Below, in pieces: positions 2,936 to 63,802 of a DNA stretch of 64,000 nt. The position numbers were made by a program, and so were the translations under genes. Each line of letters begins with the position of its first letter. Position 1 is the stretch's first letter. The notes under the pieces were generated by a model. The model was not told the origin of the DNA, did not search any database, and saw only the letters and a list, made by a program, of their open reading frames with translations. This stretch comes from Candidatus Yanofskybacteria bacterium RIFCSPLOWO2_01_FULL_42_49 (GTDB taxonomy: Bacteria > Patescibacteriota > Minisyncoccia > 2-02-FULL-40-12 > GWA2-44-9): assembly GCA_001795615.1 (NCBI GenBank), contig MGKI01000014.1, positions 69,380 through 133,379 on the forward strand. Direction: 5' to 3'.

Positions 2936-4003
2936 CTACCTACTTTCTATAAAATCTTTGACAATTTTATAATCAGCAAAATACTTTGATTCCGGCCTAG
3001 TGACATAGTCGGGGGGGTTGAATTTATAGTAGACCTTTTTAAGAAAGGGCTTATTTGAAGCAAAATGTTTCAGTTTTTTAAGTAGATCTAGTTCTGACCA
3101 AACAGACCCTGGTTTCGCAGAAGAAACGGGCTCTTTCTGCCCAATAGACAACCATGTTTTTTCTATAGAATATTGCTGGGCAAGATAAACAATGAACATC
3201 CCCCTAACGGCGAATCGGCTTTCTTTTTCTGATATGCCTTTTTTCCGTATAATTTCCGAGAATCCTTCTTCGCAAATTCTCCACTGCTCGCCGATAGACG
3301 GATGCATCAGAAAATCTTCCGTGAGACTGTGATCAAAGAAAGGCAGGTCGCTTCTTTGCATAATATATCCTAATTTATCAAGCACCTTGGCTTTGCCAGA
3401 AATTATCAGCATATCAAACAATAAAAATTCGAACATGTCCCCGGCTATGGCAAAGTGCTTTGTAATATTGCGTATTTCTCTCTCTGTTTCGGTTCTTGTG
3501 ACCGCAAAACAAATAAAATATTGGTCGGACCAGAAATTTTTTACCCGGGCAAGCATATTCTCGTCTTCAACTGATCTGCCGAATGGCCGAGTTTGTTTCT
3601 CAATAATACCAAAAGGGTTGTTATAATCCTCGCGTCGAAATCGAATATTGATCTGCTTGCCGGCGCAAGTCCCGTAATCGGGATTTTTTTCCAAAAAATC
3701 CGCGCATTCAGAGATGGTCTTTGGAATAATAATATCATCGTCGCATGACCGCACACAGTATTTTTCCTCTATAAAAGGCATCAGATTATATGTATGATCT
3801 TTCCCCGGAGGAGCCCATTGGTAAATTATCTTAAAATTTTTAAATTTCTTTATGCCATTCTTAAGCTTCTCGGCATTCTCCGGATTACTACTGTCTAGAA
3901 TATAAATCGGGTGAGGACTATTCATCAATTCATAGAACTCAAACTGCCTCAACATAAAATCAGGGCGGTTCATGGTGGAAATTATGATGGCCACTTTAAT
4001 CAT
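2936..4003 (-). CDS. Divergent GT-A fold (GT2-like) glycosyltransferase, paralog 1 of 3
   Basis: N-terminus KVAIIISTMNRPDF...PIYILDSSNPEN and a CDDDIIIP (DxD-like) motif. It shares strong protein and DNA similarity with the adjacent gene 3996-5156. Start and stop overlap that neighbour by 8 bp. Confidence 0.55.
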   Translation of the reverse strand: MIKVAIIISTMNRPDFMLRQFEFYELMNSPHPIYILDSSNPENAEKLKNGIKKFKNFKIIYQWAPPGKDHTYNLMPFIEEKYCVRSCDDDIIIPKTISECADFLEKNPDYGTCAGKQINIRFRREDYNNPFGIIEKQTRPFGRSVEDENMLARVKNFWSDQYFICFAVTRTETEREIRNITKHFAIAGDMFEFLLFDMLIISGKAKVLDKLGYIMQRSDLPFFDHSLTEDFLMHPSIGEQWRICEEGFSEIIRKKGISEKESRFAVRGMFIVYLAQQYSIEKTWLSIGQKEPVSSAKPGSVWSELDLLKKLKHFASNKPFLKKVYYKFNPPDYVTRPESKYFADYKIVKDFIESR

Positions 4004-5156
4004 TATGGTTTTTTTCTAAAAAATCTTTAACTACTTTAAAATCGTTAAAATATTTTGACTCCGGTCTGGTCGCATCGTTGGTGGGATGATATTTATAATA
4101 TATACTTTCAAGAAGCGGCCAGCGCGAAACAAAATATCTTGCTTTTTTAAACAAACCTCGTCCCAGCCGGGCAGATGTTGGCCGAGTAGGGGTAGATTTA
4201 AAATGACCGATCGTTTGGGTAACAGGCGGCCAATCGGTCTCCAAAGTAAACTGGCGCGCAAGATAAAGAACAAATATCCATTTGGCAATTTTTAATCCTT
4301 CTTCCTCTGTATACCCTTTTTCTCTTATGATTTCAGCGAATTCCTTATGGGCTATCGCCCATTGGCTGCTCATATTTGGATCTGTCACGACATCAACCGT
4401 TAAACTATGGGTAAAACTGTAACGGTTACTACTCTTTTGCATGACATACCCTAATTTGTCAAGCACTTTAAATTTACCGGAAATTACCAATATAGAAGTT
4501 GATAAAAATTCCAAGATATGTTCAGTCAAAGAAAAATACTTAGTAACATTTCGAATTGATTTTTCCAACTCAACGCTTCTAACCACGAAACAAATAAAAG
4601 CTACGTTTCTGATGGAAACTTCGGAGTTGTTAATCTTTAGATCAAACCAAAACTCCTTAACCCTGGCCAGCATATTATCATCTTCAAGCGACCTGCCATG
4701 CGGCAGTGTCTGACGCTCAATGATGCCGTAGGGCTTATTATAATTTTTCTTCTGAAAACTAAAATTAATCTGCTTTCCGGCGCAAGTTGCATAATCGGGA
4801 TTTTTTTCCAAAAAATCCGCGCATTCAGACATTGTACTGGGAATAAGAAGGTCGTCATCTCCCATCTGAATGCAGTACTTTTCTTTTACTTGGGGCAAAA
4901 GTTGATACAAACAATCTTTCCCCGGCGGAGCCCATTGATATATTATACTTAACTTCTTAAATTTCTTTATCTCTTTTTTTAACTTATCCGCATTCTCTGG
5001 ATTACTACTATCCAAAACATAAATCGGATGGGGACTATTCATCAATTCATAGAACTCAAACTGCCTCAATATAAAATCGGGACGGTTCATTGTTGGAATT
5101 AGGATGGCTACTTTAGTCATTGTTGAATGGTATAATTTGGGTACGATAAAGTCCAT
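3996..5156 (-). CDS. Divergent GT-A fold (GT2-like) glycosyltransferase, paralog 2 (tandem duplicate of paralog 1)
   Basis: TKVAILIPTMNRPDFILRQFEFYELMNSPHPIYVLDSSNPEN is near-identical to paralog 1, and the C-terminus ...TRPESKYFNDFKVVKDF is also conserved. Probable start is MTKVAIL at ~5120. Long nucleotide stretches are shared with paralog 1, for example around 3895-3990 and 5040-5100. Confidence 0.55.
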   Translation of the reverse strand: MDFIVPKLYHSTMTKVAILIPTMNRPDFILRQFEFYELMNSPHPIYVLDSSNPENADKLKKEIKKFKKLSIIYQWAPPGKDCLYQLLPQVKEKYCIQMGDDDLLIPSTMSECADFLEKNPDYATCAGKQINFSFQKKNYNKPYGIIERQTLPHGRSLEDDNMLARVKEFWFDLKINNSEVSIRNVAFICFVVRSVELEKSIRNVTKYFSLTEHILEFLSTSILVISGKFKVLDKLGYVMQKSSNRYSFTHSLTVDVVTDPNMSSQWAIAHKEFAEIIREKGYTEEEGLKIAKWIFVLYLARQFTLETDWPPVTQTIGHFKSTPTRPTSARLGRGLFKKARYFVSRWPLLESIYYKYHPTNDATRPESKYFNDFKVVKDFLEKNHND

Positions 5157-5175
5157 AGTTCTTGTTTATAACACC

Positions 5176-5206
5176 CGTTGATACCTTCTGACACTTTTTG
5201 ATACTG
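5176..5206 (+). promoter_or_regulatory. Phased TGAYAC direct repeats (x3, 10 bp spacing), a promoter/operator-like motif upstream of the HemN-like gene
   Basis: TGATAC at 5179, TGACAC at 5189 and TGATAC at 5199, separated by T-rich spacers. The region can also be read as TTGATA-N16-GATACT (sigma70-like). A GAGGGG SD precedes ATG 5279. The same motif recurs at 6711-6741 and 18454-18493. Confidence 0.5.
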
Positions 5207-5278: not shown

Positions 5279-6664
5279 ATGCTCAAGAATGTGAACCCAA
5301 ATATATTACAAATAACCAATGCCTTTATGTATACCGAATACCCCCACAAGAGTTTTTGGTCAACTGATATGGGAAGTGAAGATTGTCATTCGGCGCTACT
5401 TGAATTATTAACCGATGAGCCCAATGTCCCTCTTTTGCTCTATGTCCATATATTGTACTGCACAAAACTTTGCTGGTTCTGTAATTGTCACATAGGAGAG
5501 ATCACCCAAAGCCAAGACAAGAGAAAAGATTATCTTGAGCTTCTTTATTCAGAAATACGATTGTTTAAGAAACTTTTTGACAAACACTCTTTGGCTCCGA
5601 ATTTTACAGAAATACATCTAGGAGGCGGATCTCCTACGGATCTTAGCATGAATGACTTTAGCCGACTGGTAGAAAATTTGAGTTCAATCGTAGATATCAA
5701 AAACTTGAGTGAATTTTCTATTGAAATAGATCCAAGACACAGCAGCAGAGAAATGCTTAGATTTTACCATAACCAAGGAATAAACCGAATTTCCTTTGGA
5801 ATTCAGGACTTTGACCCTGGTGTCCAAAAAGCCATTAACAGAATCCAGCCGATAGAGCTTGTAGAAAAACTTATGGGGCCGGAAATTAGTGATCTTTTCC
5901 CCAATGGTATAAATTTTGACATTATTTGCGGCCTGCCTCATCAAACAACCGAAACAATCAAGAGAACGATGGATGAATGTGTCCGTCTTTCGCCGGATAG
6001 GATTTGCTTCAATTATCTCCACCAGGCTCCCGAATTTTCAAAACATCAGCGACTTATGTCTGACGGTAAATTTGGAAGACCAGATCATCTTCCGGATTAT
6101 TATGAGAGGAAAAAACTCTTCACTATAGCCATGGAAACATTGATTAAAGCCGGCTATATCCGCACCGGATATGACCATTTTGCCAAACCAACTGATGCCG
6201 TGGCCAAGGCGATGGCAGAAGGTAAAATGCAATGGAATGCATTGGGAGTTACTGCGGGAAGATACACCAGTATTATTGGCGTGGGAATCCAGAGTTTTAG
6301 CACAATCGGCAATTATTATTTTCAGAATTTTTATGACTTGAAAAAATACCGGGAATCTTTGAGACAAGGACAATTTCCGATTTTCCGCGGCCATCGGCAA
6401 AACCAAGATGATCTTATCAGAAGAGATGTTATTCAAACTTTAAGAAGTTTCTTTTCTATAGATTTCAGATGTATTGACGAAAAATACGCTATTAATTTTG
6501 AGGAATATTTCGATCCAGAACTTGTGGCATTAGATGATTATGTAAGGGACGGCCTGATAGAAATAAAAGACAGGTCGATTATTATTACTGAGAAAGGGCA
6601 TCAATTCGCTAATACTGTCTGTTATGTATTTGATAAATATAAAAAAAATCGGCCCAAATTTTAA
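5279..6664 (+). CDS. HemN-like radical SAM enzyme (coproporphyrinogen III oxidase-like / class C radical SAM family)
   Basis: CTKLCWFCNC gives the HemN-type CxxxCxxCxC cluster, and HLGGGSPT matches the HemN GGGTP-like motif. Length is 461 aa and a terminator follows. Confidence 0.8.
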   Translation: MLKNVNPNILQITNAFMYTEYPHKSFWSTDMGSEDCHSALLELLTDEPNVPLLLYVHILYCTKLCWFCNCHIGEITQSQDKRKDYLELLYSEIRLFKKLFDKHSLAPNFTEIHLGGGSPTDLSMNDFSRLVENLSSIVDIKNLSEFSIEIDPRHSSREMLRFYHNQGINRISFGIQDFDPGVQKAINRIQPIELVEKLMGPEISDLFPNGINFDIICGLPHQTTETIKRTMDECVRLSPDRICFNYLHQAPEFSKHQRLMSDGKFGRPDHLPDYYERKKLFTIAMETLIKAGYIRTGYDHFAKPTDAVAKAMAEGKMQWNALGVTAGRYTSIIGVGIQSFSTIGNYYFQNFYDLKKYRESLRQGQFPIFRGHRQNQDDLIRRDVIQTLRSFFSIDFRCIDEKYAINFEEYFDPELVALDDYVRDGLIEIKDRSIIITEKGHQFANTVCYVFDKYKKNRPKF

Positions 6665-6751: not shown

Positions 6752-7852
6752 ATGGGCAATGAACAAAATACAAAAGTAGCCATATCAATATCCACAATGA
6801 ACCGGCCGGATTTCTTGGCTCGTACTCTTAATTATTACGCAAAATGTAAATCCCCCCACCCGGTCTATTTGTCCGATTCAAGTAGCCCTGAAAATGTTAA
6901 GATAATTAAATCAATTCTGAAAAAACTAGATAATAAATTAGAGATACATTACAACTGGCTCCCGCCCGGGTTAGAACCCCACGAAAGAACGCTTTCTGTG
7001 GTAAAAGAAAAATACGCCCTCATTAACGGAGACGACGACTACGAAATACCGTCCACTTTAACTAAGTGCGCAGAATTTCTAGAGAATAACCCGGACTATA
7101 CTGCAGCTGGGGGTCATGGCATATCTTTTCGACTTAAAACCAGTGGTCCATACGGAGAAATAAAAAGGTTGGCCGACTATCCTTTTTATCCAATTGAAGC
7201 AAATACGGCCTCTCAAAGATTAAATGATTTTTTAAAAAAATGTTTCGTCGTCACATCCGGAGTAAATCGAGTTGAACATTTGAAGAAGATCTGGGTCATT
7301 CCGTTGCCCATAATAAACACCTGGAGCGAACTATTTCAGATAAGCCATTGCGCCGTGTCCGGTAAAATAAAATTGCTGGACTGCCTGGGCATAGTTCGGC
7401 ACATTCATGACCAGCAATATTACCTGACAAGTATGGTTGATTGGCTGACCGAAAAAGAATTCTATAATTATTATACGATATTCCAAGACCACCTTGCTAA
7501 AACAATCGCAAAAATTGACAATGTTTCCATAGACCAGGCAAAACAAACTGTTAAAAACGCCTTCTGGGAATACCTGCAAGTATATATGGCAAACGAAAAA
7601 AAAGGATTGGGGGCTAACAATGAGGAGTTAAAGACAAGCTCCCCTACTTTAAAAACGTTAAGAGTAACGCTCGGAAAGACTTTTCCTGTTTTAAAAACCG
7701 CTTACCGTCAATACTTAAGACCCTTTATCTCTGATAAACAACAGATGCATTATGACGCGATGAACTCACGCTCTCCATATTTTAAAGAGTTTCAGTTTGT
7801 AATGGATTCGTTCACGGGAAAGGATATAAAAACACATGACCAACAACAATAA
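6752..7852 (+). CDS. Divergent GT-A fold (GT2-like) glycosyltransferase, paralog 3
   Basis: TKVAISISTMNRPDFLARTL...PVYLSDSSSPEN and NGDDDYEIP share the architecture of the two paralogs at 2936-5156. It is the first gene of a long + strand operon. Confidence 0.55.
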   Translation: MGNEQNTKVAISISTMNRPDFLARTLNYYAKCKSPHPVYLSDSSSPENVKIIKSILKKLDNKLEIHYNWLPPGLEPHERTLSVVKEKYALINGDDDYEIPSTLTKCAEFLENNPDYTAAGGHGISFRLKTSGPYGEIKRLADYPFYPIEANTASQRLNDFLKKCFVVTSGVNRVEHLKKIWVIPLPIINTWSELFQISHCAVSGKIKLLDCLGIVRHIHDQQYYLTSMVDWLTEKEFYNYYTIFQDHLAKTIAKIDNVSIDQAKQTVKNAFWEYLQVYMANEKKGLGANNEELKTSSPTLKTLRVTLGKTFPVLKTAYRQYLRPFISDKQQMHYDAMNSRSPYFKEFQFVMDSFTGKDIKTHDQQQ

Positions 7853-8981
7853 ACAAAACAAAAGAAGCGTGGGATTTATCCCCTACGGCCGACAATCAAT
7901 TGATAATGATGATATTAAGGCCGTCGTTAATGTCTTGCGTTCGGACTGGTTGACCCAGGGTCCTGCGGTAAAACAATTTGAAGAGTCGCTGGCTAAATAT
8001 TGCAACGCCAAATATGCCGTAGCCGTTTCAAACGGCACGGCCGCTCTTCATTTAGCGTATTTAGCCGCCGATTTAAGCGCCGGTGATGAAGTTATCACAA
8101 CCCCAAATACATTTGCCGCAACTTCAAACATGCTCCTGGCGGTTGGAGCAAAACCTATTTTCTGTGATATACGGCTTGATAACTATAATCTTGACGAAAC
8201 AAAAATAGAAAAACTTGTCACCTCAAAAACAAAAGCCATAGTTCCGGTCCATTTTGGCGGCCATCCGTGCAATATGGACAAAATATTAAGTATGGCCAAA
8301 AAACACAGCCTGCTCGTAATTGAAGATGCTTGCCATGCTCTAGGCGCCTCATTTAAGAATGAGAAGGTTGGCGGCATCGGTGATATGTCGGTTTTCAGTT
8401 TTCATCCGGTCAAATCAATAACTACCGGTGAGGGTGGGGCAATTCTGACAAATAATCCTAAATTTTATAAAAAACTGGCCCATCTCCGAACACATGGCAT
8501 AACCAAAGATGAGGGTGGATTCAATGTTATGACCGCACTAGGTTATAACTACAGAATTACCGATATTCAGACGGCCTTGGGAATAAGTCAGTTGAAGAAA
8601 CTGGATAAATTTGTAAAAGCTAGGCAGAAGATTTTCGATATCTATAAAAAAGAGCTGGCCGGTGTAAAAGAGGTCTTCACTCCCTCTCTGGCCAAAAACT
8701 CCGTTTCTTCAAATCATCTTTTTGTAATAAGGACAAAAGACCCAACAAAAAGAAATCCTCTTGCTAATTTTCTTAAACAAAACGGCATAGGCGTAAATTT
8801 TCACTATCCAACCGTTTATTCCCACCCTTATTACAGAAAAAATGGCTATAAAGATGTAAAACTAGCCAACGCCGATCTATATCATAACTCCTGTATCACG
8901 CTTCCGCTTTATGTAACACTAGAAAAGAGCCAAATAAAATACATATGCAATAAAATAAAGGAATTCTTTAAAAAAGTTTAA
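7836..8981 (+). CDS. DegT/DnrJ/EryC1/StrS-family PLP-dependent sugar aminotransferase (PseC/LegC-like)
   Basis: Contains DWLTQGP and SNGTAALHLA, the Schiff-base lysine context FHPVKSITTGEGGAI, and YNYRITDIQTALG. The ORF overlaps the upstream gene. Confidence 0.85.
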   Translation: MTNNNKQNKRSVGFIPYGRQSIDNDDIKAVVNVLRSDWLTQGPAVKQFEESLAKYCNAKYAVAVSNGTAALHLAYLAADLSAGDEVITTPNTFAATSNMLLAVGAKPIFCDIRLDNYNLDETKIEKLVTSKTKAIVPVHFGGHPCNMDKILSMAKKHSLLVIEDACHALGASFKNEKVGGIGDMSVFSFHPVKSITTGEGGAILTNNPKFYKKLAHLRTHGITKDEGGFNVMTALGYNYRITDIQTALGISQLKKLDKFVKARQKIFDIYKKELAGVKEVFTPSLAKNSVSSNHLFVIRTKDPTKRNPLANFLKQNGIGVNFHYPTVYSHPYYRKNGYKDVKLANADLYHNSCITLPLYVTLEKSQIKYICNKIKEFFKKV

Positions 8982-9090
8982 AGTAGAGAATTAAAAGTTA
9001 AAAATCAAAGTTACAAGTTAAAATTTTTTATATATAACTTTGAATTTAAAACTTTAACTTTCAACTTTACACTTTTAACTTTTTACTTAT
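8982..9090. repeat. Palindromic AT-rich AAGTTAAAAG / AACTTTCAACTT repeat element filling the intergenic gap (copy A)
   Basis: The left arm (AAAAGTTAAAAATCAAAGTTACAAGTTAAAA) and the right arm (AACTTTGAATTTAAAACTTTAACTTTCAACTTTACACTTTTAACTTTTT) are near reverse complements. It shares the k-mers AAGTTAAAAG, ACTTTCAACT and CTTTTAACTT with copy B at 60874-61005. Confidence 0.7.
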
Positions 9091-10950
9091 ATGCAAACAT
9101 ACCTACTTTTTGAGATAGCCAATTCCTGCGCTGGGTCGAGCAAATTGATAGAAAAGTTGATAGATTCCCTACCGCAAGAGGATAATTTTGGCATTAACCC
9201 CCACACTCACTTTAGATATAGCTCAAAGAGCCAAAAACTAAAGCAAGTTAAAGTGAGTGTGGGGGTAAAATTTCAAGTTTATAAGTATAACGAAATTGCC
9301 TTATCCGACTATGAATGGTATCCGGTTTATAAGCAAACCTTCATAAATGCGCAGAATTGGAAAAAGATTTTTGCTCATGCAAAGAGCAAGGGCTTTGATA
9401 TCTGGATAGATGTTTTTGATCTATATAGCGTAGAAGTTATTAAAGATAATCTGCCGTTGGTAACCGGAATAAAACTCCAGTCTTCTGTTTTGAATAACCT
9501 CAAGGTATTGACTGCATTATCTGAAGTAATAAAAAACGGAAAGATTACGGTGATGTTAAATGTTGCCGGCAGAGACCTATCAAACATCAAAGAGTTGCTT
9601 AAAGATATAAGATCAAATTATTTTGACAATAAAATTATACTTCAAGCCGGTTTTCAGGGATATCCCACCGATAAAGAAGATCTAACCGTAAGTAAGGTCC
9701 GGATCTTAAAATCCGAATTTCCTAGTACAATAATATCTTATGCCGATCATGTTGACGGCAGTTCGCCTCTTGCGTTTGATATTCCGGTTTTTGCCGTATT
9801 GGCCGGCGCCGAGCACATAGAAAAGCATGTCTGCTTAGACAGGAAAAATACAAAATACGACTTCCAATCAGCAATTGAGCCCTATGAATGTGATCTATTA
9901 ATTTACAAGCTTAATGAAGCCGAAAAAATATTGGGAACAAAGTTTATACCAGACAAGGAAGCAAATTACCTCAAAACAACAATAGAGAAACCAATCGCTT
10001 CAGTTCATTTGAGAGCCGGCGATATTATAAATTTCAAAAACTTTGACTTTAGAAGAACCGGGCAGGAGGGGCTGACTGTAGCTGAAATAAAAGAATATAT
10101 GGAAAAAAGGTACGTACTGAAAAATGATATAAAGCCCGGGAAACCGATAACAAAAAATGATCTGAAAAAAGCCAGAGTAGGCGTTATTATCGCCTGCCGA
10201 ATGAAGTCAACCCGCTTAAAACATAAAGCCATATTACCCATTCAAGGACTGGCATCAATCGAAAGATGTATTTTGAACGCTAAAAAAATTAAATCGGCTG
10301 ATGAGATAATTTTGGCAACTTCAACCCTTGAAGAAGATCAAATTCTAAAAAAATACGCCTTAAAGCATAGGATCCGTTTTTTTGCCGGAGACCCCGAGGA
10401 TGTCATACTCCGCTATTTAGGCGTAGCTGAAAAATATAATCTTGATGTTACAATCCGAGTTACCGGTGATTGCCCGATAGTGTCGTATGAGATGGCCAAA
10501 TTTTTACTGAAAAGACATTTTGAAAAAGGTAATGATTATACTGGCCCCAAAGAATATTGTACCGGACAAAATAGCGAAATATACAGTGTAAATACATTAA
10601 AAAGAATTATAAAGTACTTGGGTGATGCCAGACATTCCGAATATATGACTTGGTATATGCTTACTAATAAAGACATCTTCCAAGTAGATATGGCCGAATT
10701 GCCCAAAGAATGGATCCGCGCTTACCGGCTAACCCTGGATGTCCAAGAAGACCTTGATATGTTTAATGCCTTATTTGAAAAATTGGGCAAAAAAGAAGTA
10801 AGCATTAAAAATGTATTCGGGGTAATTGACAAGAATCCCTGGATTCACGAACTTAACGATGCCATGGTTCTTAAATACAAATCGGATAAAAAATTAATAG
10901 ACATGCTGAATAAAGAAACGAGGATAAATCCGCCCAAAATTAAAAAATGA
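9091..10950 (+). CDS. Fusion protein: divergent NeuB-like (sialic/nonulosonic acid synthase-like TIM barrel + SAF domain) fused to an acylneuraminate cytidylyltransferase-like domain (SpsE-SpsF-like)
   Basis: N-terminal ~340 aa: the order of blocks matches NeuB (...GIKLQSSVLNNLKVL..., ...ISYADHVDGSSPLAFDIPVFAVLAGAEHIEKHVCLD...) and is followed by a SAF-like segment (VHLRAGDIINFKNFDF). C-terminal ~250 aa: ARVGVIIACRMKSTRLKHKAILPI...ILATS...IRVTGDCPIV is typical of CMP-sugar cytidylyltransferases (NeuA/PseF/SpsF). Confidence 0.6.
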   Translation: MQTYLLFEIANSCAGSSKLIEKLIDSLPQEDNFGINPHTHFRYSSKSQKLKQVKVSVGVKFQVYKYNEIALSDYEWYPVYKQTFINAQNWKKIFAHAKSKGFDIWIDVFDLYSVEVIKDNLPLVTGIKLQSSVLNNLKVLTALSEVIKNGKITVMLNVAGRDLSNIKELLKDIRSNYFDNKIILQAGFQGYPTDKEDLTVSKVRILKSEFPSTIISYADHVDGSSPLAFDIPVFAVLAGAEHIEKHVCLDRKNTKYDFQSAIEPYECDLLIYKLNEAEKILGTKFIPDKEANYLKTTIEKPIASVHLRAGDIINFKNFDFRRTGQEGLTVAEIKEYMEKRYVLKNDIKPGKPITKNDLKKARVGVIIACRMKSTRLKHKAILPIQGLASIERCILNAKKIKSADEIILATSTLEEDQILKKYALKHRIRFFAGDPEDVILRYLGVAEKYNLDVTIRVTGDCPIVSYEMAKFLLKRHFEKGNDYTGPKEYCTGQNSEIYSVNTLKRIIKYLGDARHSEYMTWYMLTNKDIFQVDMAELPKEWIRAYRLTLDVQEDLDMFNALFEKLGKKEVSIKNVFGVIDKNPWIHELNDAMVLKYKSDKKLIDMLNKETRINPPKIKK

Positions 10951-13972: not shown

Positions 13973-13973
13973 C

Positions 13974-15173: not shown

Positions 15174-15231
15174 ATTTTACTTTTAACTCATTCATGCTAT
15201 CATCCTGTTAGTTTTTCAATACCGAGTAAAC

Positions 15232-15674: not shown

Positions 15675-15691
15675 GACCCCGAGAAGGGGTC
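15675..15691. terminator. Bidirectional hairpin between convergent genes
   Basis: GACCCC-GAGAA-GGGGTC. On the - strand it is followed by TTTTATG. It overlaps the stop codons of both flanking genes. Confidence 0.5.
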
Positions 15692-16761: not shown

Positions 16762-16829
16762 AAAATACTACCTTTTCAAGGAACTTTGAGCAATAATACC
16801 TCAATCGCCTAAAATAGCAATTTTAGAGA

Positions 16830-17306: not shown

Positions 17307-17315
17307 GTGGGATTT

Positions 17316-22818: not shown

Positions 22819-22830
22819 TATTTACTCGGG

Positions 22831-43945: not shown

Positions 43946-43948
43946 TTT

Positions 43949-46023: not shown

Positions 46024-46041
46024 GTGTGTCGAGGATTAATT

Positions 46042-51018: not shown

Positions 51019-51077
51019 TGCTTAATGTACAATTTACAACATACAATATACAATCTTTTATTGTTGATTGTCGATTG
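51019..51077. repeat. Leader region of GT4 gene 49831-51018 with 7-nt periodic repeats (ATTGTAN x4; CAATCNA x3)
   Basis: On the - strand: ...CGATTAACAATCGACAATCAACAATAAAAGATTGTATATTGTATGTTGTAAATTGTACATT.... Confidence 0.75.
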
Positions 51078-55462: not shown

Positions 55463-57724
55463 TTACAATTCTCTCCCCAAACTTCTTAAAAACATCCTGG
55501 CATCCGGTTCAAAAGACGGATCAACTTGAACCGCTTTGCGAGCCATAGCCACCGCGTCATCAATTCTTCCTAAATTGGCATATGCAGCGGCCAGTGAAGC
55601 ATAATGTTGAGGATCTCTCGGATTTACGGCAATAAGTCGTTCAAATGTTCGAGCTATATTAGGACGGTCATTTAATTCGACATAAACAGAAAGCATCCTT
55701 GAATATTCCTGTTCGCTCGGCATGTATCTGTTTTTAACCTCCAGAGACCTCTCCAGGTTCTTAATCCCGCTTTTATCGCCAGCCTGAAGTTTAGCCACCC
55801 CCAAATACCAATGAGATATTCCAGTATCAGGATTTAAGTCAACGGCTCTTTGGAAATATTCTATGGCCTTAACAAGATCTTTCTTGTTAAGATATGCTTG
55901 GGCTATTTCAAAATAAGTCCTGACAAAAGTTGGCGATAGTTCAAGAGCTTTAAGAGAATATTCAAGAGACTTATCGTTATATAATGACTCGGGATCATGC
56001 TGACCAAGCATAATATTTAACCTCGAACCGTATAAATAGGGCAGATAATCAATCGAGTTTTCTCTAATATTTTTGTCGATTTCTTCCAAAACATAAAGAT
56101 AGATCTGTCTGACCTTTTCTTCTTTCACGCTTGGGCCGCCCGCACCAACCAAGTATTGTGCAAGACGGTGTCTATAGTCATATTTACCAGGCACATCATA
56201 TAACAAGGATTCTTTATATTTATTAATAGCTCCATCAAAATCACCCTGCCAGCCCCTAACAATAGCTCTTGTGGTCGCATAGTTGGCTTTGGCTGGCAAA
56301 ATATTCGTTTTATATATCAACCATGGAATAAATATAACCAAAACTATCACAATAGTATTAAATAGGATTTTATTTGGTTTTCTAAGATTTTTAATTCGTT
56401 GCGTCTGCGCATCATTCGTATTATATCCACGCGCAAGCGCGGAAATAAGGCCCAAAATAGTAAAGAAAATAATAAAATTAGCCGAAGTATCGAAGATAAA
56501 AGAGTTATGAATTATATAGGCAACAACCAGCGGTATAAAACCGACCCCATAAATTACAAGTTCCGAATTTCTTAACCATCTGCGCAAATAAATAAACATC
56601 GCCGTGAAAATACCGAGATAAGACAGAAGGCCGGTCAGTCCCATTGTTACAAGAACCTCTACAAACATATTGTGAGCTCTGTCGAACAGTGTCTCCGCTC
56701 CCTGCCCGGCGTAAAATTTGGGGTTAAAGTATTTGGAAAACGGAATATTGAAATTCTCCGGCCCCCAACCGAGAAGAATAGTTTTAGGGCTGTCGGTCCA
56801 ACCCTTGAGTCCCGCTTCCCAGGCCCAAAAACGGGTTTCAGTTGTTTGTGATCTTAAGGACAGATCGGTTATCCTGCTCAAATATTTTGACTTTTCTATA
56901 AATTGGGAGTTCCCAAAAAGAAGCGAAAAAATAATAAAAAGAGCCGCAAAGCCAATTAAATAACTAAATGCCAATCGTCCAAAACGAGATTTCTTGTATA
57001 CTCCCCATAAAAACGCAAAAACCGTGATCCCGACCGCGTAGGCCAAAACAGACCCCCTGACTGCAGTCATTAAAGCGGCGATAGAAGTAACGGCAAAAGC
57101 AAACGCGTAGAATATTTTACGATTCTTGGTATTTTGGGAACTGAAAAATAGCGTAAGAGACAGAAATACCGCGAAAAGCTGGGAACCAGCAAATAAGGCC
57201 GCATTGCCGGTAGTACCGAATATTCTTGTCCTGTTACCGGACCCGACAAAAAACTCAATATCAGTTTTTTGTCCAAACCCATAAAATGCCGACAATACCC
57301 CGGCAACAATGGTAATGTCCAAAATTCTTTGCCAATGCTCCTTTTTTGTTAATACGGAGGTTAAGATTATATAAAATAGAAAATAGTGCCAGAATGTCCA
57401 AAGTCCGCCCATTCTTTCAAGTGTTCCCCAAAAACTAGGATATCTTAAAACACTGGTAGTGGTGGTTAAAGTAAATGCCGCGACAAAAAACAAAAACGCC
57501 CAGAATATCTTATCCCGGCGCGGTAAATAAGACCTGTCTTTCAATATCAGAATAAGATAAGCCGCTCCCAGAATTTCTATTAAACTCCTGAATACGACAA
57601 CTTTCCCGAAATGAAACGGGGAGATAAAATCCTTAAATATCACAAGCGGCACTAAAGCCGTCAGATATATACCAAAACGTAAAAATTTTATTAAACCTGA
57701 TTCTTTTTGATTGCTTCTCTCCAT
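55463..57724 (-). CDS. O-antigen ligase/Wzy_C-like polytopic membrane protein with C-terminal TPR repeats
   Basis: About 12 TM helices with a large external loop in the N-terminal ~450 aa. C-terminal TPR-like repeats follow (AQAYLNKKDLVKAIEYFQRAVDLNP...). Confidence 0.6.
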   Translation of the reverse strand: MERSNQKESGLIKFLRFGIYLTALVPLVIFKDFISPFHFGKVVVFRSLIEILGAAYLILILKDRSYLPRRDKIFWAFLFFVAAFTLTTTTSVLRYPSFWGTLERMGGLWTFWHYFLFYIILTSVLTKKEHWQRILDITIVAGVLSAFYGFGQKTDIEFFVGSGNRTRIFGTTGNAALFAGSQLFAVFLSLTLFFSSQNTKNRKIFYAFAFAVTSIAALMTAVRGSVLAYAVGITVFAFLWGVYKKSRFGRLAFSYLIGFAALFIIFSLLFGNSQFIEKSKYLSRITDLSLRSQTTETRFWAWEAGLKGWTDSPKTILLGWGPENFNIPFSKYFNPKFYAGQGAETLFDRAHNMFVEVLVTMGLTGLLSYLGIFTAMFIYLRRWLRNSELVIYGVGFIPLVVAYIIHNSFIFDTSANFIIFFTILGLISALARGYNTNDAQTQRIKNLRKPNKILFNTIVIVLVIFIPWLIYKTNILPAKANYATTRAIVRGWQGDFDGAINKYKESLLYDVPGKYDYRHRLAQYLVGAGGPSVKEEKVRQIYLYVLEEIDKNIRENSIDYLPYLYGSRLNIMLGQHDPESLYNDKSLEYSLKALELSPTFVRTYFEIAQAYLNKKDLVKAIEYFQRAVDLNPDTGISHWYLGVAKLQAGDKSGIKNLERSLEVKNRYMPSEQEYSRMLSVYVELNDRPNIARTFERLIAVNPRDPQHYASLAAAYANLGRIDDAVAMARKAVQVDPSFEPDARMFLRSLGREL

Positions 57725-62132: not shown

Positions 62133-63374
62133 TTAGATCTTTTCCAAATAATCACCATGAACCCACCCTTCTTTGCCCTCAAATGTTATCTTGTGCCATA
62201 AACCACTTTTGCCCAAACTCGTTACTTTGTCGCCAGCATCAAGCTGTCCCAAAATTGAACCTGCGGTACTAGCCGATGATCTGACGTTAAGGAACCCAAC
62301 ACTAGAAACAATCTTGTACTGATTGGCTGTTGATACGGTAGTTCCAGAAGATGCAGTTCCAGAAGATGAGGTAGCTTTTCTTGTATAATCGGGTATTTGA
62401 TTTACGGAAGTATAATCAGATCCCTTTGGGTACCAATTAAACTCTTTAGTATTTATACAGAAAACCTTTTTAAAGAAATTGGGATCGTCGGCAACAGCTT
62501 GCGCTCCGGTAGTGTTAACCCAGTGAAGTTTCCCTGTATCTTCGCCGGTGGTTTCCACACCATAAACTTTTACATCATTAGTTTCGCAATTTCTGAAAAG
62601 ACCAGAGGTTACGAACACATCCCTCGTCGTAGATGTAGCGCTTTTAATCTTGGAAAATCCGCCAAGATGGCCATAGAATCCAAATATCGCAGGATTTAAG
62701 AATAACCTTTTATAACCATGCGGGTTAACTATATAAACATCGGGGTCACTTGAACCGGCGGCACTAATGACATCACCGTCTTTTAAGCTTACGGCCGCCA
62801 AGCTGACGAACCCTTGTGAGGCCGGGGTTGGCTTGCTTGTTGAAACAGATGTGGGCGACACAGTCGGGGTCGGCGTCACTGAAACCGCCGGACTCACTGT
62901 CGGAGTTGGAGTCGGAGTTGGAGTTGCCGTAGTCGTGGTCGTGGTTGTAGTTGTGGTCGTTCCGCCTCCACCACCACCTCCACCACCACTATTTCCTGCG
63001 GTACCGCAAGCATTCGAGCTGGGTGTTATTATTACCGTTTTTGTAGAACTAGGAGCTATCGTCAATTCCGACTTATCGCTGAAACATTCGTATTCAAAAG
63101 CGCTGTCATTGGTCAACAATTTCCTATCAGACGATCGAAGCTTAAATGTCTGACCAGAGGTAATCTCAATGGTTATGGTGGTATTGGTAGTTATTATCGA
63201 ATTTACCACGGAACCGTCTACTATCGTCATGTTTCCCACATCAAGAGCAACAGTTGTGTCTCCAGTAGAAGTGGCGGTTGTAGCATTGGTTTTGTTTACT
63301 CCGACCAATAGCAGTCCTGCCATTAAAACAATAACGAGTAACGGCAGAAAAAAGTTAGTTTTTAATAATTTCAT
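62133..63374 (-). CDS. Secreted protein with Gly9-Thr11-(Thr-Pro)n linker and C-terminal SH3b-like domain
   Basis: Signal peptide MKLLKTNFFLPLLVIVLMAGLLLVG, then the linker GGGGGGGGGTTTTTTTTTTTATPTPTPTPTVSPAVSVTPTPTVSPTSVSTSKPTP. The C-terminus ...GFLNVRSSASTAGSILGQLDAGDKVTSLGKSGLWHKITFEGKEGWVHGDYL is SH3_3-like. Confidence 0.6.
   Translation of the reverse strand: MKLLKTNFFLPLLVIVLMAGLLLVGVNKTNATTATSTGDTTVALDVGNMTIVDGSVVNSIITTNTTITIEITSGQTFKLRSSDRKLLTNDSAFEYECFSDKSELTIAPSSTKTVIITPSSNACGTAGNSGGGGGGGGGTTTTTTTTTTTATPTPTPTPTVSPAVSVTPTPTVSPTSVSTSKPTPASQGFVSLAAVSLKDGDVISAAGSSDPDVYIVNPHGYKRLFLNPAIFGFYGHLGGFSKIKSATSTTRDVFVTSGLFRNCETNDVKVYGVETTGEDTGKLHWVNTTGAQAVADDPNFFKKVFCINTKEFNWYPKGSDYTSVNQIPDYTRKATSSSGTASSGTTVSTANQYKIVSSVGFLNVRSSASTAGSILGQLDAGDKVTSLGKSGLWHKITFEGKEGWVHGDYLEKI
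62860..63000. repeat. Low-complexity tandem repeats in DNA encoding the Thr/Pro linker and poly-Gly
   Basis: GTCGGAGTTGGAGTCGGAGTTGGAGTTGCC, GTCGTGGTCGTGGTTGTAGTTGTGGTCGTT and CCGCCTCCACCACCACCTCCACCACC on the + strand. Confidence 0.8.
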
Positions 63375-63394
63375 TTGTGGTGATTAGATTATTT

Positions 63395-63802
63395 TTATTT
63401 TTGTTGCTGAATACTCTGAATCGTTTTGACAACTTGAGAGTCAAGCCTCATATTTTCCCAAAATAGAACTTGATCTTGGTTTACTATCATTTCGTCCTTA
63501 GGGCCATGAGGCTCGCCTACGCCAAGCTTAACAAGTTGGCCAGCGCCACTTTCATTTATCTTAACATAATAAACATCGGATAAGATCAAATAATCTGAAC
63601 TGATATTCTTCAAGCGTCCAAAGTATATCTGGTCATTTGTTAAGAACACTGCTTGGTATGTATCCGAATCAATAAATTTACTTCTATCGTAACTGTCATA
63701 CTTTAACCAATTGGTTAGAAAAGATGATCCAATAACACCGACAACAAATCCGACTACAACCAAACCGACAGTGACAATTGGAACATACTTAATCTTAGGC
63801 AT
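63395..63802 (-). CDS. Small signal-anchored protein of unknown function
   Basis: 135 aa. N-terminal TM helix VPIVTVGLVVVGFVVGVIGSSFL, then a soluble beta-rich domain. Confidence 0.4.
   Translation of the reverse strand: MPKIKYVPIVTVGLVVVGFVVGVIGSSFLTNWLKYDSYDRSKFIDSDTYQAVFLTNDQIYFGRLKNISSDYLILSDVYYVKINESGAGQLVKLGVGEPHGPKDEMIVNQDQVLFWENMRLDSQVVKTIQSIQQQK

Follow-up and report, generated by a model that had tools for sequence, protein, structure and literature searches.

A putative cell-surface glycosylation locus in Candidatus Yanofskybacteria and its possible role in modifying secreted proteins

Among described systems, the O-oligosaccharyltransferases WsfB and PglL carry a Wzy_C domain with C-terminal TPR repeats, and the slg clusters of Geobacillus adjoin S-layer genes (PMC2943079). 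The TMTC glycosyltransferases are defined by motifs that include M1, M2 and M4 (PMC7801869), NaxD offers a precedent for an amino-sugar lipid-carrier module (PMC11279074), and a published Parcubacterium genome encodes 20 glycosyltransferases in total (PMC5220378). Here, a 64-kb window (the whole stretch of DNA analyzed) was examined from Candidatus Yanofskybacteria (CPR/Patescibacteria; locus tags A2651_*), an uncultivated host from Rifle aquifer groundwater. Its sequence was taken as genuine because 12-kb overlaps at each end are 100% identical to independent long assemblies (contigs of 188,658 and 141,381 bp); the same locus is also present in GCA_001794105.1. Beyond the window, coverage reached about 19 kb on the upstream side and 16.6 kb on the downstream side; the outermost parts (-9 to -19 kb and 73.4-80.6 kb) were read not from the same contig but from contigs assembled from other samples, which are 99.8-99.9% identical. 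Sugar genes were traced upstream as far as -19 kb and GT-C/TPR genes downstream to +73.9 kb, so that the region spans ~93 kb and passes both window edges. The preliminary description had it run from 2.9 kb to the window end; the dense glycan gene content is borne out, but a start at 2936 is arbitrary because g01-g03 form the tail of a sugar-modification cassette that continues upstream. The locus holds up as genuine and, for so small a genome, is very large; it is assembled from enzymes of known kinds. With somewhat better than even confidence, we regard the window as the middle portion, two thirds in all, of a super-locus for cell-surface glycosylation that spans ~93 kb or more.

Fifty-five ORFs tile the window (Table 1), each scanned against Pfam and NCBIfam, and with a coding fraction of 95.8% and a largest gap of 288 nt they are packed too tightly for any gene to have been overlooked. 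Between 2936 and 63802, 48 of the 52 genes (g04-g55) are glycan-related, in keeping with the ~60-kb supercluster of at least 45 glycan genes first proposed; the other four are g36, which has no family assignment, and g52, g54 and g55, which are secreted or membrane-anchored. The earlier tallies also hold: ten GT4 enzymes (g23, g29, g38, g40, g43, g44, g45, g46, g48, g49), three TIGR04440 GT-A paralogs, two GT2 (g31, g47), four GT-C or ligase-like proteins (g32, with PMT_2 above its gathering score; g51 and g53, TMTC-like with TPR; and the single Wzy_C plus TPR protein, g50) and three radical SAM enzymes (HemN-like g06, B12-binding g27 and g28). At least five methyltransferases had been counted as well, but only four classical ones were found (g20, g26, g35, g41; g26 is weak), and a total of five or more requires counting the radical SAM enzymes too. 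Two weak candidate transferases (g16, g19), two LtaS/EptA-like membrane paralogs with a sulfatase fold (g24, g25) and about 22 other sugar-nucleotide or tailoring enzymes were also found.

Table 1. Features of the window. Coordinates of g47-g49 are gene-caller output; "in" marks a gene lying within the span given.
Gene	Assignment	Position	Strand	Basis
g01	HAD hydrolase	241-900	+	Pfam
g02	Aldo-keto reductase	999-1952	+	Pfam
g03	Transketolase, N-terminal half only	2016/2040-2687	+	Pfam
g04	TIGR04440 GT-A-type glycosyltransferase	2936-4003	-	NCBIfam
g05	TIGR04440 GT-A-type glycosyltransferase	3996-5156	-	NCBIfam
g06	HemN-like (class C) radical SAM	5279..6664	+	Pfam Radical_SAM, HemN_C
g07	Third TIGR04440 paralog	6752..7852	+	NCBIfam, 135 bits
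g08-g15	Nonulosonate (pseudaminic-acid-type, acetamidino) operon	7836..15672	+	Pfam/NCBIfam
g08	PseC aminotransferase	in 7836..15672	+	PseC 460 bits vs 423.5
g09	NeuB-like/CMP-sugar cytidylyltransferase fusion	in 7836..15672	+	
g10	DUF218	in 7836..15672	+	
g11	PseI synthase	in 7836..15672	+	PseI 455 bits vs 340
g12	HisH-type amidotransferase	in 7836..15672	+	HisH 234 bits vs 105
g13	WbuZ/HisF-like	in 7836..15672	+	WbuZ 255 bits, below cutoff 300
g14	WbuX N-acetyl-sugar amidotransferase	in 7836..15672	+	WbuX 325 bits vs 203
g15	GNAT (PseH-like)	in 7836..15672	+	PseH 45 bits, below cutoff 93
g16	GT-B-like	in 15691..18443	-	
g17	Cupin (RmlC/FdtA type)	in 15691..18443	-	Pfam/NCBIfam
g18	SDR epimerase/dehydratase	in 15691..18443	-	Pfam/NCBIfam
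g19	DUF115/MptE-like (Maf-like, weak)	in 18521..24027	+	MptE-like 26.4 bits, below gathering score 34.6
g20	MTS-type methyltransferase	in 18521..24027	+	
g21	NodU/CmcH-type carbamoyltransferase	in 18521..24027	+	
g22	Polysaccharide deacetylase	in 18521..24027	+	
g23	GT4	in 18521..24027	+	
g24, g25	LtaS/EptA-like phospho-substituent transferases	in 24022..28500	-	
g26	Putative SAM methyltransferase	in 24022..28500	-	
g27, g28	B12-binding radical SAM (class B)	28789..32614	-	Pfam B12-binding, Radical_SAM; NCBIfam
g29	GT4	in 32692..38093	-	
g30	YdjC deacetylase	in 32692..38093	-	YdjC 167 bits
g31	GT2 polyprenyl-phosphate-sugar synthase, 2 C-terminal TM helices	in 32692..38093	-	
g32	PMT_2 GT-C, 11 TM helices	in 32692..38093	-	PMT_2 35.7 bits vs 26.1
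g33	RmlD-like reductase	in 32692..38093	-	
g34	GFO/IDH/MocA sugar 3-dehydrogenase-like	in 38260..42808	+	Pfam GFO_IDH_MocA; NCBIfam
g35	Sugar C-methyltransferase	in 38260..42808	+	Pfam Methyltransf_14 142 bits, Methyltransf_13
g36	ORF without family assignment	in 38260..42808	-	
g37	FAD oxidoreductase	in 38260..42808	+	Pfam DAO
g38, g40	GT4	in 42791..47708	-	
g39	RmlD-like reductase	in 42791..47708	-	
g41	MetW-like methyltransferase	in 42791..47708	-	
g42	SDR epimerase/4,6-dehydratase-like	in 42791..47708	-	
g43-g46	GT4	in 47695..55407	-	Pfam
g47	GT2, Dpm1/AglJ type	52238-52993	-	Pfam
g48	GT4	52983-54113	-	Pfam
g49	GT4	54124-55407	+	Pfam
g50	Wzy_C (O-antigen-ligase family) membrane protein, C-terminal TPR	55463..57724	-	Pfam
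g51	TMTC-like GT-C, C-terminal TPR	57775-59589	-	TMTC_DUF1736 E 0.008, below gathering score
g52	Membrane-anchored secreted protein, Ser/Thr/Pro-rich linker	59593-60153	-	Sequence; between g51 and g53
g53	TMTC-like GT-C, C-terminal TPR	60217-62055	-	PMT_2 22.8 bits, below gathering score
g54	Secreted protein	in 62133..63802	-	
g55	Small membrane-anchored protein	in 62133..63802	-	
	319-aa secreted Thr/Gly/Ala-rich protein, 3' end	63821..64000, runs to ~64780	-	Called on 100%-identical scaffold

Genes for cytoplasmic enzymes that make several activated sugars lie side by side, and the four sub-pathways named at the outset are all recovered at the family level. Upstream of the window is a heptose-like or branched-sugar cassette, whose B12-radical SAM/aldo-keto reductase adjacency, split transketolase and epimerases recur in Rhodospirillales loci. 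The TIGR04440 paralogs g04, g05 and g07 have no Pfam match and score 133-135 bits (g04 133, g05 135; cutoff 70); g04 and g05 (UniRef "Glycosyltransferase 2-like domain") are 56% identical and g07 is 31-33% identical to them, a mutual range of 31-56%. Although g06 matches TIGR00538 (364 bits, cutoff 325), it sits among these paralogs and probably tailors sugars instead of acting on haem. In the acetamidino nonulosonate operon, the matches to PseC, PseI, WbuX and HisH exceed curated cutoffs; PseB and PseG were not identified in Pfam/NCBIfam scans of the window ORFs. Candidate substitutes for PseB are g17 and g18, and g16, which UniRef names "Lipid-A-disaccharide synthase", is a candidate nonulosonate transferase or PseG, with a weak local match (28.6 bits) to the BFO_1060 nonulosonate-transferase family (PMC5420450). 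The neighboring g19 is named "DUF115 domain-containing" in UniRef. Together with the radical SAM enzymes of the B12 and HemN types, g33-g42 form a set for C-methylated or deoxy/amino hexoses; the C-methyl deoxysugar pathway is represented by the Methyltransf_14 enzyme g35, RmlD-like g33 and g39, and dehydratase-like g42. Both g27 and g28 are probable C-methyltransferases; g28 is KedN5-like and 56% identical to a paralog upstream of the window. The adjacent GT2-YdjC-PMT_2 trio (g31-g30-g32) resembles the ArnC/NaxD/FlmK amino-sugar lipid-carrier module, the best matches of g31 being PgfS (236 bits) and ArnC (179 bits), and the O-mannosylation-like enzymes are g51 and g53.

No ORF in the window matched Wzx/MOP, Wzz, ABC or Bac_transf/Glycos_transf_4 families in Pfam or NCBIfam, and a TM scan found only g24, g25, g32, g50, g51 and g53 to be polytopic. 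The absence of Wzx and Wzz reported earlier therefore stands and extends to the flanks: the ~100 kb between -19 and +80.6 kb, which stop ~50 kb short of the upstream end and 39 kb short of the downstream end of the 188-kb scaffold, yielded no match to Wzx, Wzz, an ABC exporter or a priming phosphoglycosyltransferase, and an exporter set that would mark a conventional O-antigen or capsule locus was thus not seen just beyond the window. A lipid-linked oligosaccharide route depends on a priming phosphoglycosyltransferase together with a flippase or ABC exporter, so this result counts against such a route. If the ten GT4 enzymes do build a lipid-linked oligosaccharide, both functions must be encoded somewhere.

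From g43 onwards, the right third is a lineage-conserved block: the order from g50 to g43 is kept in three other Yanofskybacteria contigs (35-74% identity), and 11 or more related loci share the syntenic combination of surface protein, GT-C/TPR genes and g50. The best matches of g47 are AglJ/Dpm-type enzymes. Eleven TM helices are predicted for g50, which scores 56.6 bits for Wzy_C (cutoff 31.7); its AF2 model (pLDDT 86) matches WaaL 7tpg_B in Foldseek (E 6.6e-5, target-normalized TM-score 0.63), and its orthologs across Parcubacteria are 53-86% identical. In Wzy_C plus C-terminal TPR architecture it agrees with WsfB and PglL, and it is a candidate O-oligosaccharyltransferase or ligase. Across an alignment of 67 sequences of the g51/g53 family (AF2 model pLDDT 90.9), the DD, YRP and KE motifs do not vary, and they match TMTC motifs M1, M2 and M4; distant homologs carry PF08409 and PF13231. 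Just downstream of the window lie two more TMTC-like proteins (622 and 601 aa), which bring the block to four TMTC-like GT-C/TPR enzymes with these motifs, and a PMT_2 protein (557 aa); among them is a 719-aa TPR membrane protein whose membrane domain has no family match. With g32, g51 and g53, the downstream TMTC-like and PMT_2 proteins make up an array of extracytoplasmic, lipid-donor-dependent transferases.

Candidate acceptors are encoded in the same block. The secreted protein g54 has a Gly9-Thr11-(Thr/Pro)n linker, a 150-aa domain and a C-terminal SH3_3 domain, the 150-aa domain being 65% identical to a 1249-aa Thr/Ala/Gly/Val/Ser-rich secreted surface protein of the conserved block. Ser/Thr/Pro-rich linkers also occur in g52 and the 319-aa protein, and those of g52 and a 709-aa ComEA-like protein are like the poly-Thr/(Thr-Pro)n linker of g54. 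Both g54 and g55 may be substrates of glycosylation or accessory proteins, and the linkers together with the gene neighborhood point circumstantially to a protein acceptor. The TMTC motifs, the g50 architecture and the synteny with secreted proteins lend context to the protein side of the early leaning toward protein or cell-wall glycosylation, with protein as a putative acceptor. A serious rival is that the product is a cell-wall glycopolymer or lipoglycan. The LtaS-like g24 and g25 (five and three predicted N-terminal TM helices followed by a sulfatase-fold domain; Pfam Sulfatase matched in g24, to which g25 is 36% identical over 499 aa) and a nucleotidyltransferase upstream of the window would suit such polymers equally, and a Wzy_C protein could just as well be a polymerase or a ligase that acts on lipid acceptors; g50 itself has a weak match (21 bits, cutoff 40) to TIGR04370, a family of repeat-unit polymerases.

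O-glycosylation of the bacterium's own secreted surface proteins is our best reading of the locus, and the super-locus and surface-glycoprotein explanation as a whole falls a little on the likely side of even. The GT4 and GT-A enzymes would assemble at least one lipid-linked oligosaccharide on the cytoplasmic face, started and exported by a priming transferase and flippase that may be encoded elsewhere or be unrecognizable. Outside the membrane, the TMTC-like and PMT_2 enzymes would add single sugars to protein Ser/Thr or to the growing glycan, using polyprenyl-phosphate donors that g31 and g47 supply and including a de-N-acetylated amino sugar by way of g30, and g24 and g25 would attach phospho-substituents. 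The outcome, if so, would be an S-layer-like coat of heavily decorated surface glycoprotein. The 64-kb window alone encodes 19-21 glycosyltransferases, as against 20 genome-wide in the published Parcubacterium, and the proposed transfer by g50 of glycan en bloc to Ser/Thr of neighboring surface proteins would proceed as in WsfB, PglL and PilO.

The window is filled by 55 packed ORFs (g01-g55, numbered left to right) in twelve same-strand gene runs, with a coding fraction of 95.8% and a biggest gap of 288 nt. Enzyme family names used here are annotations, drawn from a Pfam scan of every window ORF and an NCBIfam scan of most of them. The preliminary description had claimed at least 45 glycan-related genes, and 48 of the 52 genes within 2936-63802 (g04-g55) were counted as such, the other four being g36, which received no assignment, and three secreted or membrane-anchored proteins. 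Its tallies of GT4, GT-A paralogs, GT2, GT-C or ligase-like proteins and radical SAM enzymes agree with the scans, but its five or more methyltransferases came down to four classical ones, a count of at least five being reached only if radical SAM enzymes are included. For comparison, 20 glycosyltransferases make up the full set of a curated Parcubacterium genome (PMC5220378). Neither the Rfam scan nor the tRNA scan of the window gave a match, and no papers on TIGR04440, the family of the three GT-A-type paralogs, were found in the literature. A reading of g20 as the housekeeping protein PrmC was rejected at 64 bits against a cutoff of 199.

Features of the locus and of related contigs. Positions are window coordinates, with minus values upstream of the window start; L labels are retrieved contigs in their own coordinates.
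Feature	Genes	Position	Content or basis
Upstream sugar set		-19 to 0 kb; L054 1-9918, L005 28-9238
B12 radical SAM enzymes upstream		about -12.3 to -1.3 kb; L054 6723-8252, L005 3607-7693
Aldo-keto reductase	g02	999-1952
Transketolase half with the ORF and gap 3' of it	g03	2016-2935
87-aa ORF 3' of g03		about 2631-2894
TIGR04440 GT-A-type paralogs, three	g04, g05, g07		missed by Pfam
Radical SAM enzymes, three	g06, g27, g28	5279-6664 (g06); 28789-32614 (g27, g28)	g06 HemN-like; g27, g28 B12-binding
Nonulosonate operon		7.8-15.7 kb	Pfam/NCBIfam
Weak candidate transferases, two	g16, g19	15691-16761 (g16)
LtaS/EptA-like membrane enzymes, two	g24, g25
GT4, ten	g23, g29, g38, g40, g43-g46, g48, g49
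GT2, two	g31, g47
GT-C-type proteins, three	g32, g51, g53
Wzy_C+TPR protein, one	g50
Sugar-nucleotide/tailoring enzymes, about 22	within g04-g55
GT block	g43-g49		four GT4, Dpm1/AglJ-like GT2, two GT4
GT-C/TPR array and secreted proteins	g50-g55 and beyond
C8/G8 tract	g52	59652-59659
Linker protein	g54	62133-63374
319-aa secreted protein		downstream flank
622-aa TMTC-like+TPR protein		downstream flank
GSDH-type dehydrogenase		downstream flank
557-aa PMT_2 protein		downstream flank
719-aa TPR membrane protein		downstream flank
601-aa PMT_2+TPR protein		ends +73.9 kb
1249-aa secreted protein		beyond +73.9 kb; L009 2851-6600	Thr/Ala/Gly/Val/Ser-rich
ORF-free stretch		about 77.75-78.45 kb; L009 2151-2850
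709-aa protein		beyond +73.9 kb	(Ser/Thr-Pro)n linker, ComEA-like domain, beta-propeller
Strain variant past its breakpoint		L003 18741-19502
Extra ORF in two related Yanofskybacteria		L055 12729-16331; L056 12722-16009

The source is a CPR/Patescibacteria organism from the Rifle aquifer, and the window proteins are identical to entries of Candidatus Yanofskybacteria bacterium RIFCSPHIGHO2_01_FULL (names beginning A2651_, GCA_001794105.1) and of a twin bin (A2918_). Because the overlapping 12 kb at each window end is 100% identical on independently assembled contigs of 188,658 and 141,381 bp, the window is not an assembly artefact. It is very improbable that the region is a chimeric metagenomic assembly, or a mobile island recently acquired and stitched from several donors: identical sequence was recovered from the independent assemblies of several samples and in two NCBI bins, GC (38.7 +/- 2.4%) and GC3 (37.3 +/- 3.4%) are even over all 55 genes when these are compared with one another, no integrase, transposase, tRNA or repeat boundary was seen in the window, and the synteny of its right third (g43 onwards) is kept in related species. 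GC3 is 47-50% in the two non-glycan surface proteins. On the side of such an origin are one strain variant that departs from the window inside g49 and the B12-binding radical SAM enzyme g28, whose nearest species-level relatives, about 42% identical and flanked by a cassette of similar make-up, belong to Rhodospirillales; this indicates an old horizontal exchange of at least one module.

The preliminary description placed the locus within about 60 kb. A sugar locus is present there, but it is larger, extending from -19 kb to +73.9 kb and so covering at least about 93 kb. Upstream sequence was read from a contig of 100% identity as far as -9 kb and from one of 99.9% identity on to -19 kb, the outermost flanks coming from contigs of other samples at 99.8-99.9% identity. 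The genes tabulated for the downstream side, from the 319-aa to the 601-aa protein, are all encoded on the minus strand. The 19 kb before the window encode SDRs, Gmd-like and GDP-fucose-synthase-like epimerases or dehydratases, a DegT aminotransferase, an RfaE-domain-II-like nucleotidyltransferase, a kinase, HAD phosphatases, a cupin, two NUDIX proteins, a full transketolase, PhyH and three further B12 radical SAM enzymes. Genes g01-g03, omitted in the preliminary description, are part of this upstream cassette. Parcubacteria genomes are typically about 1 Mb, and in a genome of that size roughly a tenth would be one contiguous glycan locus.

Several observations attach to the flanks. The upstream set resembles a (6-deoxy)heptose pathway, and in related cassettes elsewhere (L070, L071) the SDR-epimerase-PhyH-B12 radical SAM genes are paired with E1-type TPP enzymes, a pairing that suggests branched-chain sugar chemistry. 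Gene g03 encodes the N-terminal thiamine-diphosphate half of transketolase only; where the C-terminal half is expected on its 3' side there are an 87-aa ORF and a 248-nt gap, and the full-length transketolase lies about 14 kb upstream. Gene g03 may be a remnant or the partner of a distant subunit. Downstream, the 700 nt between the ComEA-like gene and that of the 1249-aa surface protein contain no ORF of at least 80 aa, which is unusually long for so compact a genome; this stretch could hold a strong promoter or a leader for the 1249-aa protein.

An acetamidino nonulosonate pathway had been proposed for the left part of the window, and it stands in its central enzymes. The aminotransferase PseC (g08; TIGR03588, 459.9 bits against a cutoff of 423.5), the synthase PseI (g11; TIGR03586, 454.7 against 340.25), WbuX (g14; 325 against 203) and HisH (g12; 234 against 105) all score above their cutoffs, and WbuX with its HisH- and HisF-like partners forms an acetamidino trio of contiguous genes. 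The pathway is not canonical, however: g13 best matches WbuZ at 255 bits, just below the equivalog cutoff of 300, the GNAT protein g15 reaches 44.7 bits against the PseH cutoff of 93.1, no window or flank protein comes near the PseB cutoff (TIGR03589; best 40 bits against 408), and PseG has no family match in window or flanks. Genes g18 with g17, and g16, are candidates for the PseB and PseG roles. The g09 protein joins a divergent NeuB-like domain to a C-terminal CTP_transf_3 domain, the latter with 78 bits and so over the gathering score of Pfam. A role of g12 and g13 in histidine biosynthesis was rejected given their place between PseI and WbuX and the best match of g13. UniRef names g16 'Lipid-A-disaccharide synthase', though the organism should be without LPS; its sole family signal is a weak local match to a Tannerella nonulosonate-transferase family (28.6 bits against a cutoff of 200). 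A new nonulosonate transferase and a stand-in for PseG are both possible roles for it. The Maf-like candidate g19 (DUF115-containing in UniRef) scores 26.4 bits as MptE-like, below the gathering score of 34.6, and no flagellin gene was found in the region.

Two further sub-pathways of the preliminary description were recovered. The amino-sugar lipid carrier corresponds to g31-g30-g32, contiguous and co-oriented on the minus strand: g31 (Glycos_transf_2, 123.7 bits, 2 C-terminal TM helices) best matches PgfS and ArnC, g30 is a YdjC deacetylase (167 bits), and g32 scores 35.7 bits as PMT_2 with 11 TM helices. No lipid A genes were seen in the region. A C-methyl deoxysugar pathway is represented within g33-g42 by a Methyltransf_14 sugar C-methyltransferase, two RmlD-like reductases, a dehydratase-like SDR, a 3-dehydrogenase-like enzyme and an FAD oxidoreductase, together with the B12 radical SAM enzymes g27 and g28.

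Counting the upstream flank with the window, six radical SAM enzymes lie amid the sugar pathways, five B12-dependent and one HemN-type. The five B12-binding enzymes fall within about 45 kb of sugar genes; cobalamin synthesis is not expected in CPR bacteria. The HemN-type enzyme, g06, passes the NCBI equivalog cutoff for oxygen-independent coproporphyrinogen III oxidase and is so named by NCBI, but its genomic context, among three glycosyltransferase paralogs and near the nonulosonate operon in a lineage not known for haem synthesis, makes a haem enzyme doubtful. The name is probably a mistake, and modification of sugars by a class C radical SAM enzyme may be its true role. A search for g28 relatives in a representative collection of 185,579 species, in which the source organism's own genome was not among the matches, returned Rhodospirillales/Ferrovibrio proteins as the species-level matches closest to g28 and to its upstream paralog (40-42% identity, 56-68% GC; L058-L068). 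In those loci the radical SAM gene is directly followed by a g02-like aldo-keto reductase, and the pair sits near split transketolase halves, epimerases, NUDIX and DegT genes. This neighbourhood has the look of a sugar-modification cassette, so far without a name, that the two lineages share through an ancient transfer between phyla.

The reported lack of Wzx and Wzz extends over a much longer stretch, and no Wzx, Wzz or ABC set was found in the 19 kb upstream or the 16.6 kb downstream that adjoin the window. Between -19 and +80.6 kb, Pfam and NCBIfam gave no Polysacc_synt/MOP match (Wzx), no Wzz/PCP chain-length regulator, no ABC_tran or ABC2_membrane match (Wzm/Wzt) and no priming phosphoglycosyltransferase (WbaP/Bac_transf or WecA/Glycos_transf_4). 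By TM scan polytopic proteins of the window are limited to g24, g25, g32, g50, g51 and g53, none of its unassigned proteins has 10-14 TM helices, and its coding density leaves no space for missed genes. A conventional Wzy- or ABC-dependent capsule or exopolysaccharide locus, with g50 as Wzy polymerase and the export, priming and chain-length genes farther along the chromosome, is improbable for these reasons, the absence of Wzx, Wzz, Wza, Wzm/Wzt and a priming transferase reaching far past the usual span of such loci. Polysaccharide genes are sometimes divided among loci, g50 does belong to the Wzy_C family, and about 50 kb upstream and 39 kb downstream on the 188-kb scaffold lie beyond the stretch searched. 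Wzy polymerases are typically hypervariable, however, whereas g50 is a conserved core gene with 53-86% identity across Parcubacteria, and a TPR-bearing GT-C array is foreign to classical capsule loci.

The membrane proteins of the right third point to transfer outside the membrane. Gene g50 scores 56.6 bits for Wzy_C against a gathering score of 31.7 and has 11 predicted TM helices with TPR repeats at about residues 580-750. The WaaL ligase 7TPG was matched by its AF2 model (pLDDT 86) at E 6.6e-5 and a target-normalised TM-score of 0.63, while the g50 score for TIGR04370, a polymerase family, is 21 bits where 40 is the cutoff. Wzy_C with C-terminal TPR is the architecture of the O-oligosaccharyltransferases (O-OTases) WsfB and PglL (PMC2943079), and g50 is a candidate O-OTase, though neither its sequence nor its predicted fold tells O-OTases apart from ligases and polymerases. 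The claim of O-mannosylation-like enzymes is supported by TMTC-type DD, YRP and KE motifs in g51 and g53. An alignment of 67 sequences of the g53 family has D28-D29, G61-L62-Y63-R64-P65 and K171-E172 invariant, matching TMTC motifs M1 (DD), M2 (…YRP) and M4 (KE…) as defined in PMC7801869, a paper that mentions prokaryotic TMTC homologs without an account of their function. The 622-aa neighbour has DD and YRP, the 601-aa neighbour DE and YRP. Pfam TPR families score in g51 and g53, and in an AF2 model (pLDDT 90.9) the helical membrane domain at the N terminus reaches about residue 410, with some 14 TPR helices after it.

Because PMT_2 and TMTC_DUF1736 family-model scores for g51 and g53 fell below threshold, these proteins are termed TMTC-like on motifs and predicted architecture, not on fold. 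Searches of PDB sequences returned nothing useful for g04, g16, g19, g25 and the 1249-aa protein and TPR matches only for g50 and g51, and a PDB profile search with the g53-family membrane domain had no match even at E 10. Aligning that profile by hhalign to g32 and the 719-aa protein gave probabilities below 1%, single-sequence targets being uninformative. Putatively, the TMTC-like proteins move a sugar from polyprenyl-phosphate-sugar to protein Ser/Thr; their context, with the Dpm1/AglJ-like g47, the PgfS/ArnC-like g31 and adjacent Ser/Thr/Pro-linker proteins, is no more than supportive.

On balance, the locus probably serves to O-glycosylate surface proteins, by a mechanism pieced together from its gene content. 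Activated sugars would come from the cytoplasmic pathways, and one or more lipid-linked oligosaccharides would be assembled by the GT4 and GT-A enzymes, started and exported by a primer enzyme and a flippase encoded elsewhere, and moved by g50 onto Ser/Thr of secreted proteins. Polyprenyl-phosphate monosaccharides would be supplied by g31 and g47, one of them de-N-acetylated by g30, and would be used outside the membrane by g32, g51, g53 and three downstream homologs, on protein or glycan; g24 and g25 would add phospho-substituents. The 1249-aa protein and g54 are candidate acceptors, as further are g52 and the 319-aa protein. A Gly9-Thr11-(Thr/Pro)n low-complexity linker is present in g54, as is a 150-aa domain 65% identical to the N terminus of the 1249-aa protein, a shared domain with no Pfam family match. 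The only long G/C homopolymer of the window lies in the secreted-protein gene g52, C8 on the plus strand and G8 on the coding strand, and is a possible slipped-strand site.

The main rival to protein glycosylation, unlikely yet a serious contender, is that the product is a glycopolymer linked to the wall or a lipoglycan anchored in the membrane, resembling teichoic acid or LTA/LAM. A glycolipid or lipid-linked chain would be built by GT4 enzymes and extended outside the membrane by GT-C enzymes from polyprenyl-phosphate sugars, as with mycobacterial Emb/Aft/PimE; g24 and g25 would add glycerol-phosphate or phosphoethanolamine, and g50 would polymerise the chain or ligate it to its anchor. GT4 takes in many glycolipid synthases, g24 and g25 have the N-terminal TM helices and extracellular sulfatase fold of LtaS/EptA-type enzymes, and a cytidylyl/adenylyltransferase-family gene lies upstream. 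The Wzy_C family includes ligases as well as polymerases, consistent with the WaaL-like fold and weak TIGR04370 match of g50, and CPR cells have peptidoglycan and are without LPS (PMC5220378). Against such a polymer, the search of about 100 kb turned up neither a primer of TagO/WecA type nor an LCP ligase, and no Wzx, TagGH or other ABC exporter, the TMTC-type motif set with C-terminal TPR is that of protein O-glycosyltransferases, Wzy_C with C-terminal TPR is the WsfB/PglL architecture, and synteny with the secreted Ser/Thr/Pro-linker proteins is conserved.

This conservation is extensive. The order ComEA-like, 1249-aa, TPR/GT-C genes, 319-aa, g55, g54, (GSDH/PMT_2), g50 occurs in at least 11 related metagenomic loci, across which the 1249-aa protein is 49-87% identical, and on three other Yanofskybacteria contigs orthologs of g49, g48, g47, g46 and g45 come in turn after that of g50 (67-82% identical), the run extending to g44 and g43 in one of them. 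Since gene order recurs in both sets, the right third is a lineage-conserved core. Past g43 the content differs in the one relative reaching that far, and the left two thirds may be the variable part. Local differences were also seen. The contig of a co-occurring strain (scaffold_1416), followed leftward from window position 64000, agrees completely with the window as far as 54635 and then departs inside g49, with a 238-aa GT4 fragment beside an Exo_endo_phos_3 gene near the contig end, which reads as evidence of a strain-level rearrangement at the edge of the GT block. Two related Yanofskybacteria have, between their g50 and g49 orthologs, an additional ORF (1,095-1,200 aa) that matches no family; in the window this interval is a gap of only 55 nt.

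A more specific version of protein glycosylation is put forward tentatively, as somewhat doubtful: Yanofskybacteria and related Parcubacteria would have a coat formed by a giant, conserved surface protein, and its O-glycosylation outside the membrane would be the work of the tandem TMTC-like GT-C array acting on polyprenyl-phosphate monosaccharides, so that no Und-PP-oligosaccharide flippase would be needed, with the Wzy_C-TPR O-OTase alongside. If true, bacteria would have their own equivalent of eukaryotic ER-lumenal O-mannosylation, and there would be a first mechanistic handle on CPR cell-envelope construction. CPR/Patescibacteria make up a very large and mostly uncultivated share of bacterial diversity, and their envelope is still described as unclear (PMC5220378). 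As these bacteria live attached to other cells, it is probably their surface chemistry that decides how hosts are recognised and how susceptible the cells are to phage. Should protein glycosylation be the right reading, there would be named candidate substrates (the 1249-aa protein, g54, g52 and the 319-aa protein) and enzymes (g50, g51, g53), and bacterial TMTC homologs would gain a function; failing that, the locus keeps its use as a catalogue of unusual sugar chemistry. Public since 2016, the sequence is annotated mostly as 'hypothetical protein'. In the literature no account of a comparable CPR locus was found, and essentially none of CPR or Yanofskybacteria glycosylation clusters.

Among known systems, the S-layer glycan (slg) clusters of the Gram-positive Bacillales Geobacillus stearothermophilus (wsa) and Paenibacillus alvei (wsf) likewise have consecutive nucleotide-sugar, glycosyltransferase and glycan-processing genes and a Wzy_C-family O-OTase, the C-terminal TPR of WsfB recurring in g50, and the organism here is likewise monoderm-like and without LPS. 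In Geobacillus the S-layer target gene is close by (PMC2943079); here secreted-protein genes are, as acceptor candidates only. Unlike this locus, with neither in about 100 kb, slg clusters have a Wzm/Wzt ABC exporter and a WbaP-like primer (WsaP/WsfP), whereas the GT-C array with four TMTC-like members, the nonulosonate pathway and several radical SAM enzymes belong to this locus only. The O-glycosylation locus of Tannerella forsythia and other Bacteroidetes shares an acetamidino Pse/Leg-type nonulosonate, methyltransferases, many glycosyltransferases and, weakly, the g16 match. It differs in having a Wzx flippase and a glycan that also bears a carbamoylated sugar. Tannerella is a diderm, and evidence of a D(S/T)(A/I/L/V/M/T)-type sequon was not seen here. 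Two reports on that system describe S-layer and other surface proteins as glycosylated (PMC5420450; PMC6120980).

Large O-antigen/rfb loci are alike in size and in co-localising many glycosyltransferases and sugar pathways, but have Wzx, Wzy and often Wzz and decorate LPS, whereas here exporters were not found and the organism is without LPS. The Leptospira rfb locus spans tens to about 100 kb. With eukaryotic TMTC1-4/PMT, g51 and g53 (and less completely the 622- and 601-aa proteins) share an N-terminal multi-TM domain, DD after TM1, YRP in the same loop, KE and C-terminal TPR, but these are bacterial proteins of predicted activity, their donor would be a bacterial polyprenyl-phosphate sugar, and the DUF1736 loop is marginally detected. 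The adjacent, co-oriented g31, g30 (as NaxD) and g32 resemble ArnC/ArnD/ArnT (L-Ara4N), FlmF2/NaxD/FlmK (GalN) and LgmA/LgmC/LgmB (GlcN), modules in which a polyprenyl-P-HexNAc is made, de-N-acetylated and then transferred outside the membrane (PMC11279074). Those systems modify lipid A; because CPR bacteria are without LPS (PMC5220378), the acceptor here would be another glycan or a protein. All individual enzyme families are already known, and the closest analogues are the Bacillales slg clusters and the Tannerella general O-glycosylation locus. Apart from both, this locus has no exporter or primer in about 100 kb, a GT-C array with four TMTC-like proteins bearing TPR, a very large size for a small CPR genome and six radical SAM enzymes.
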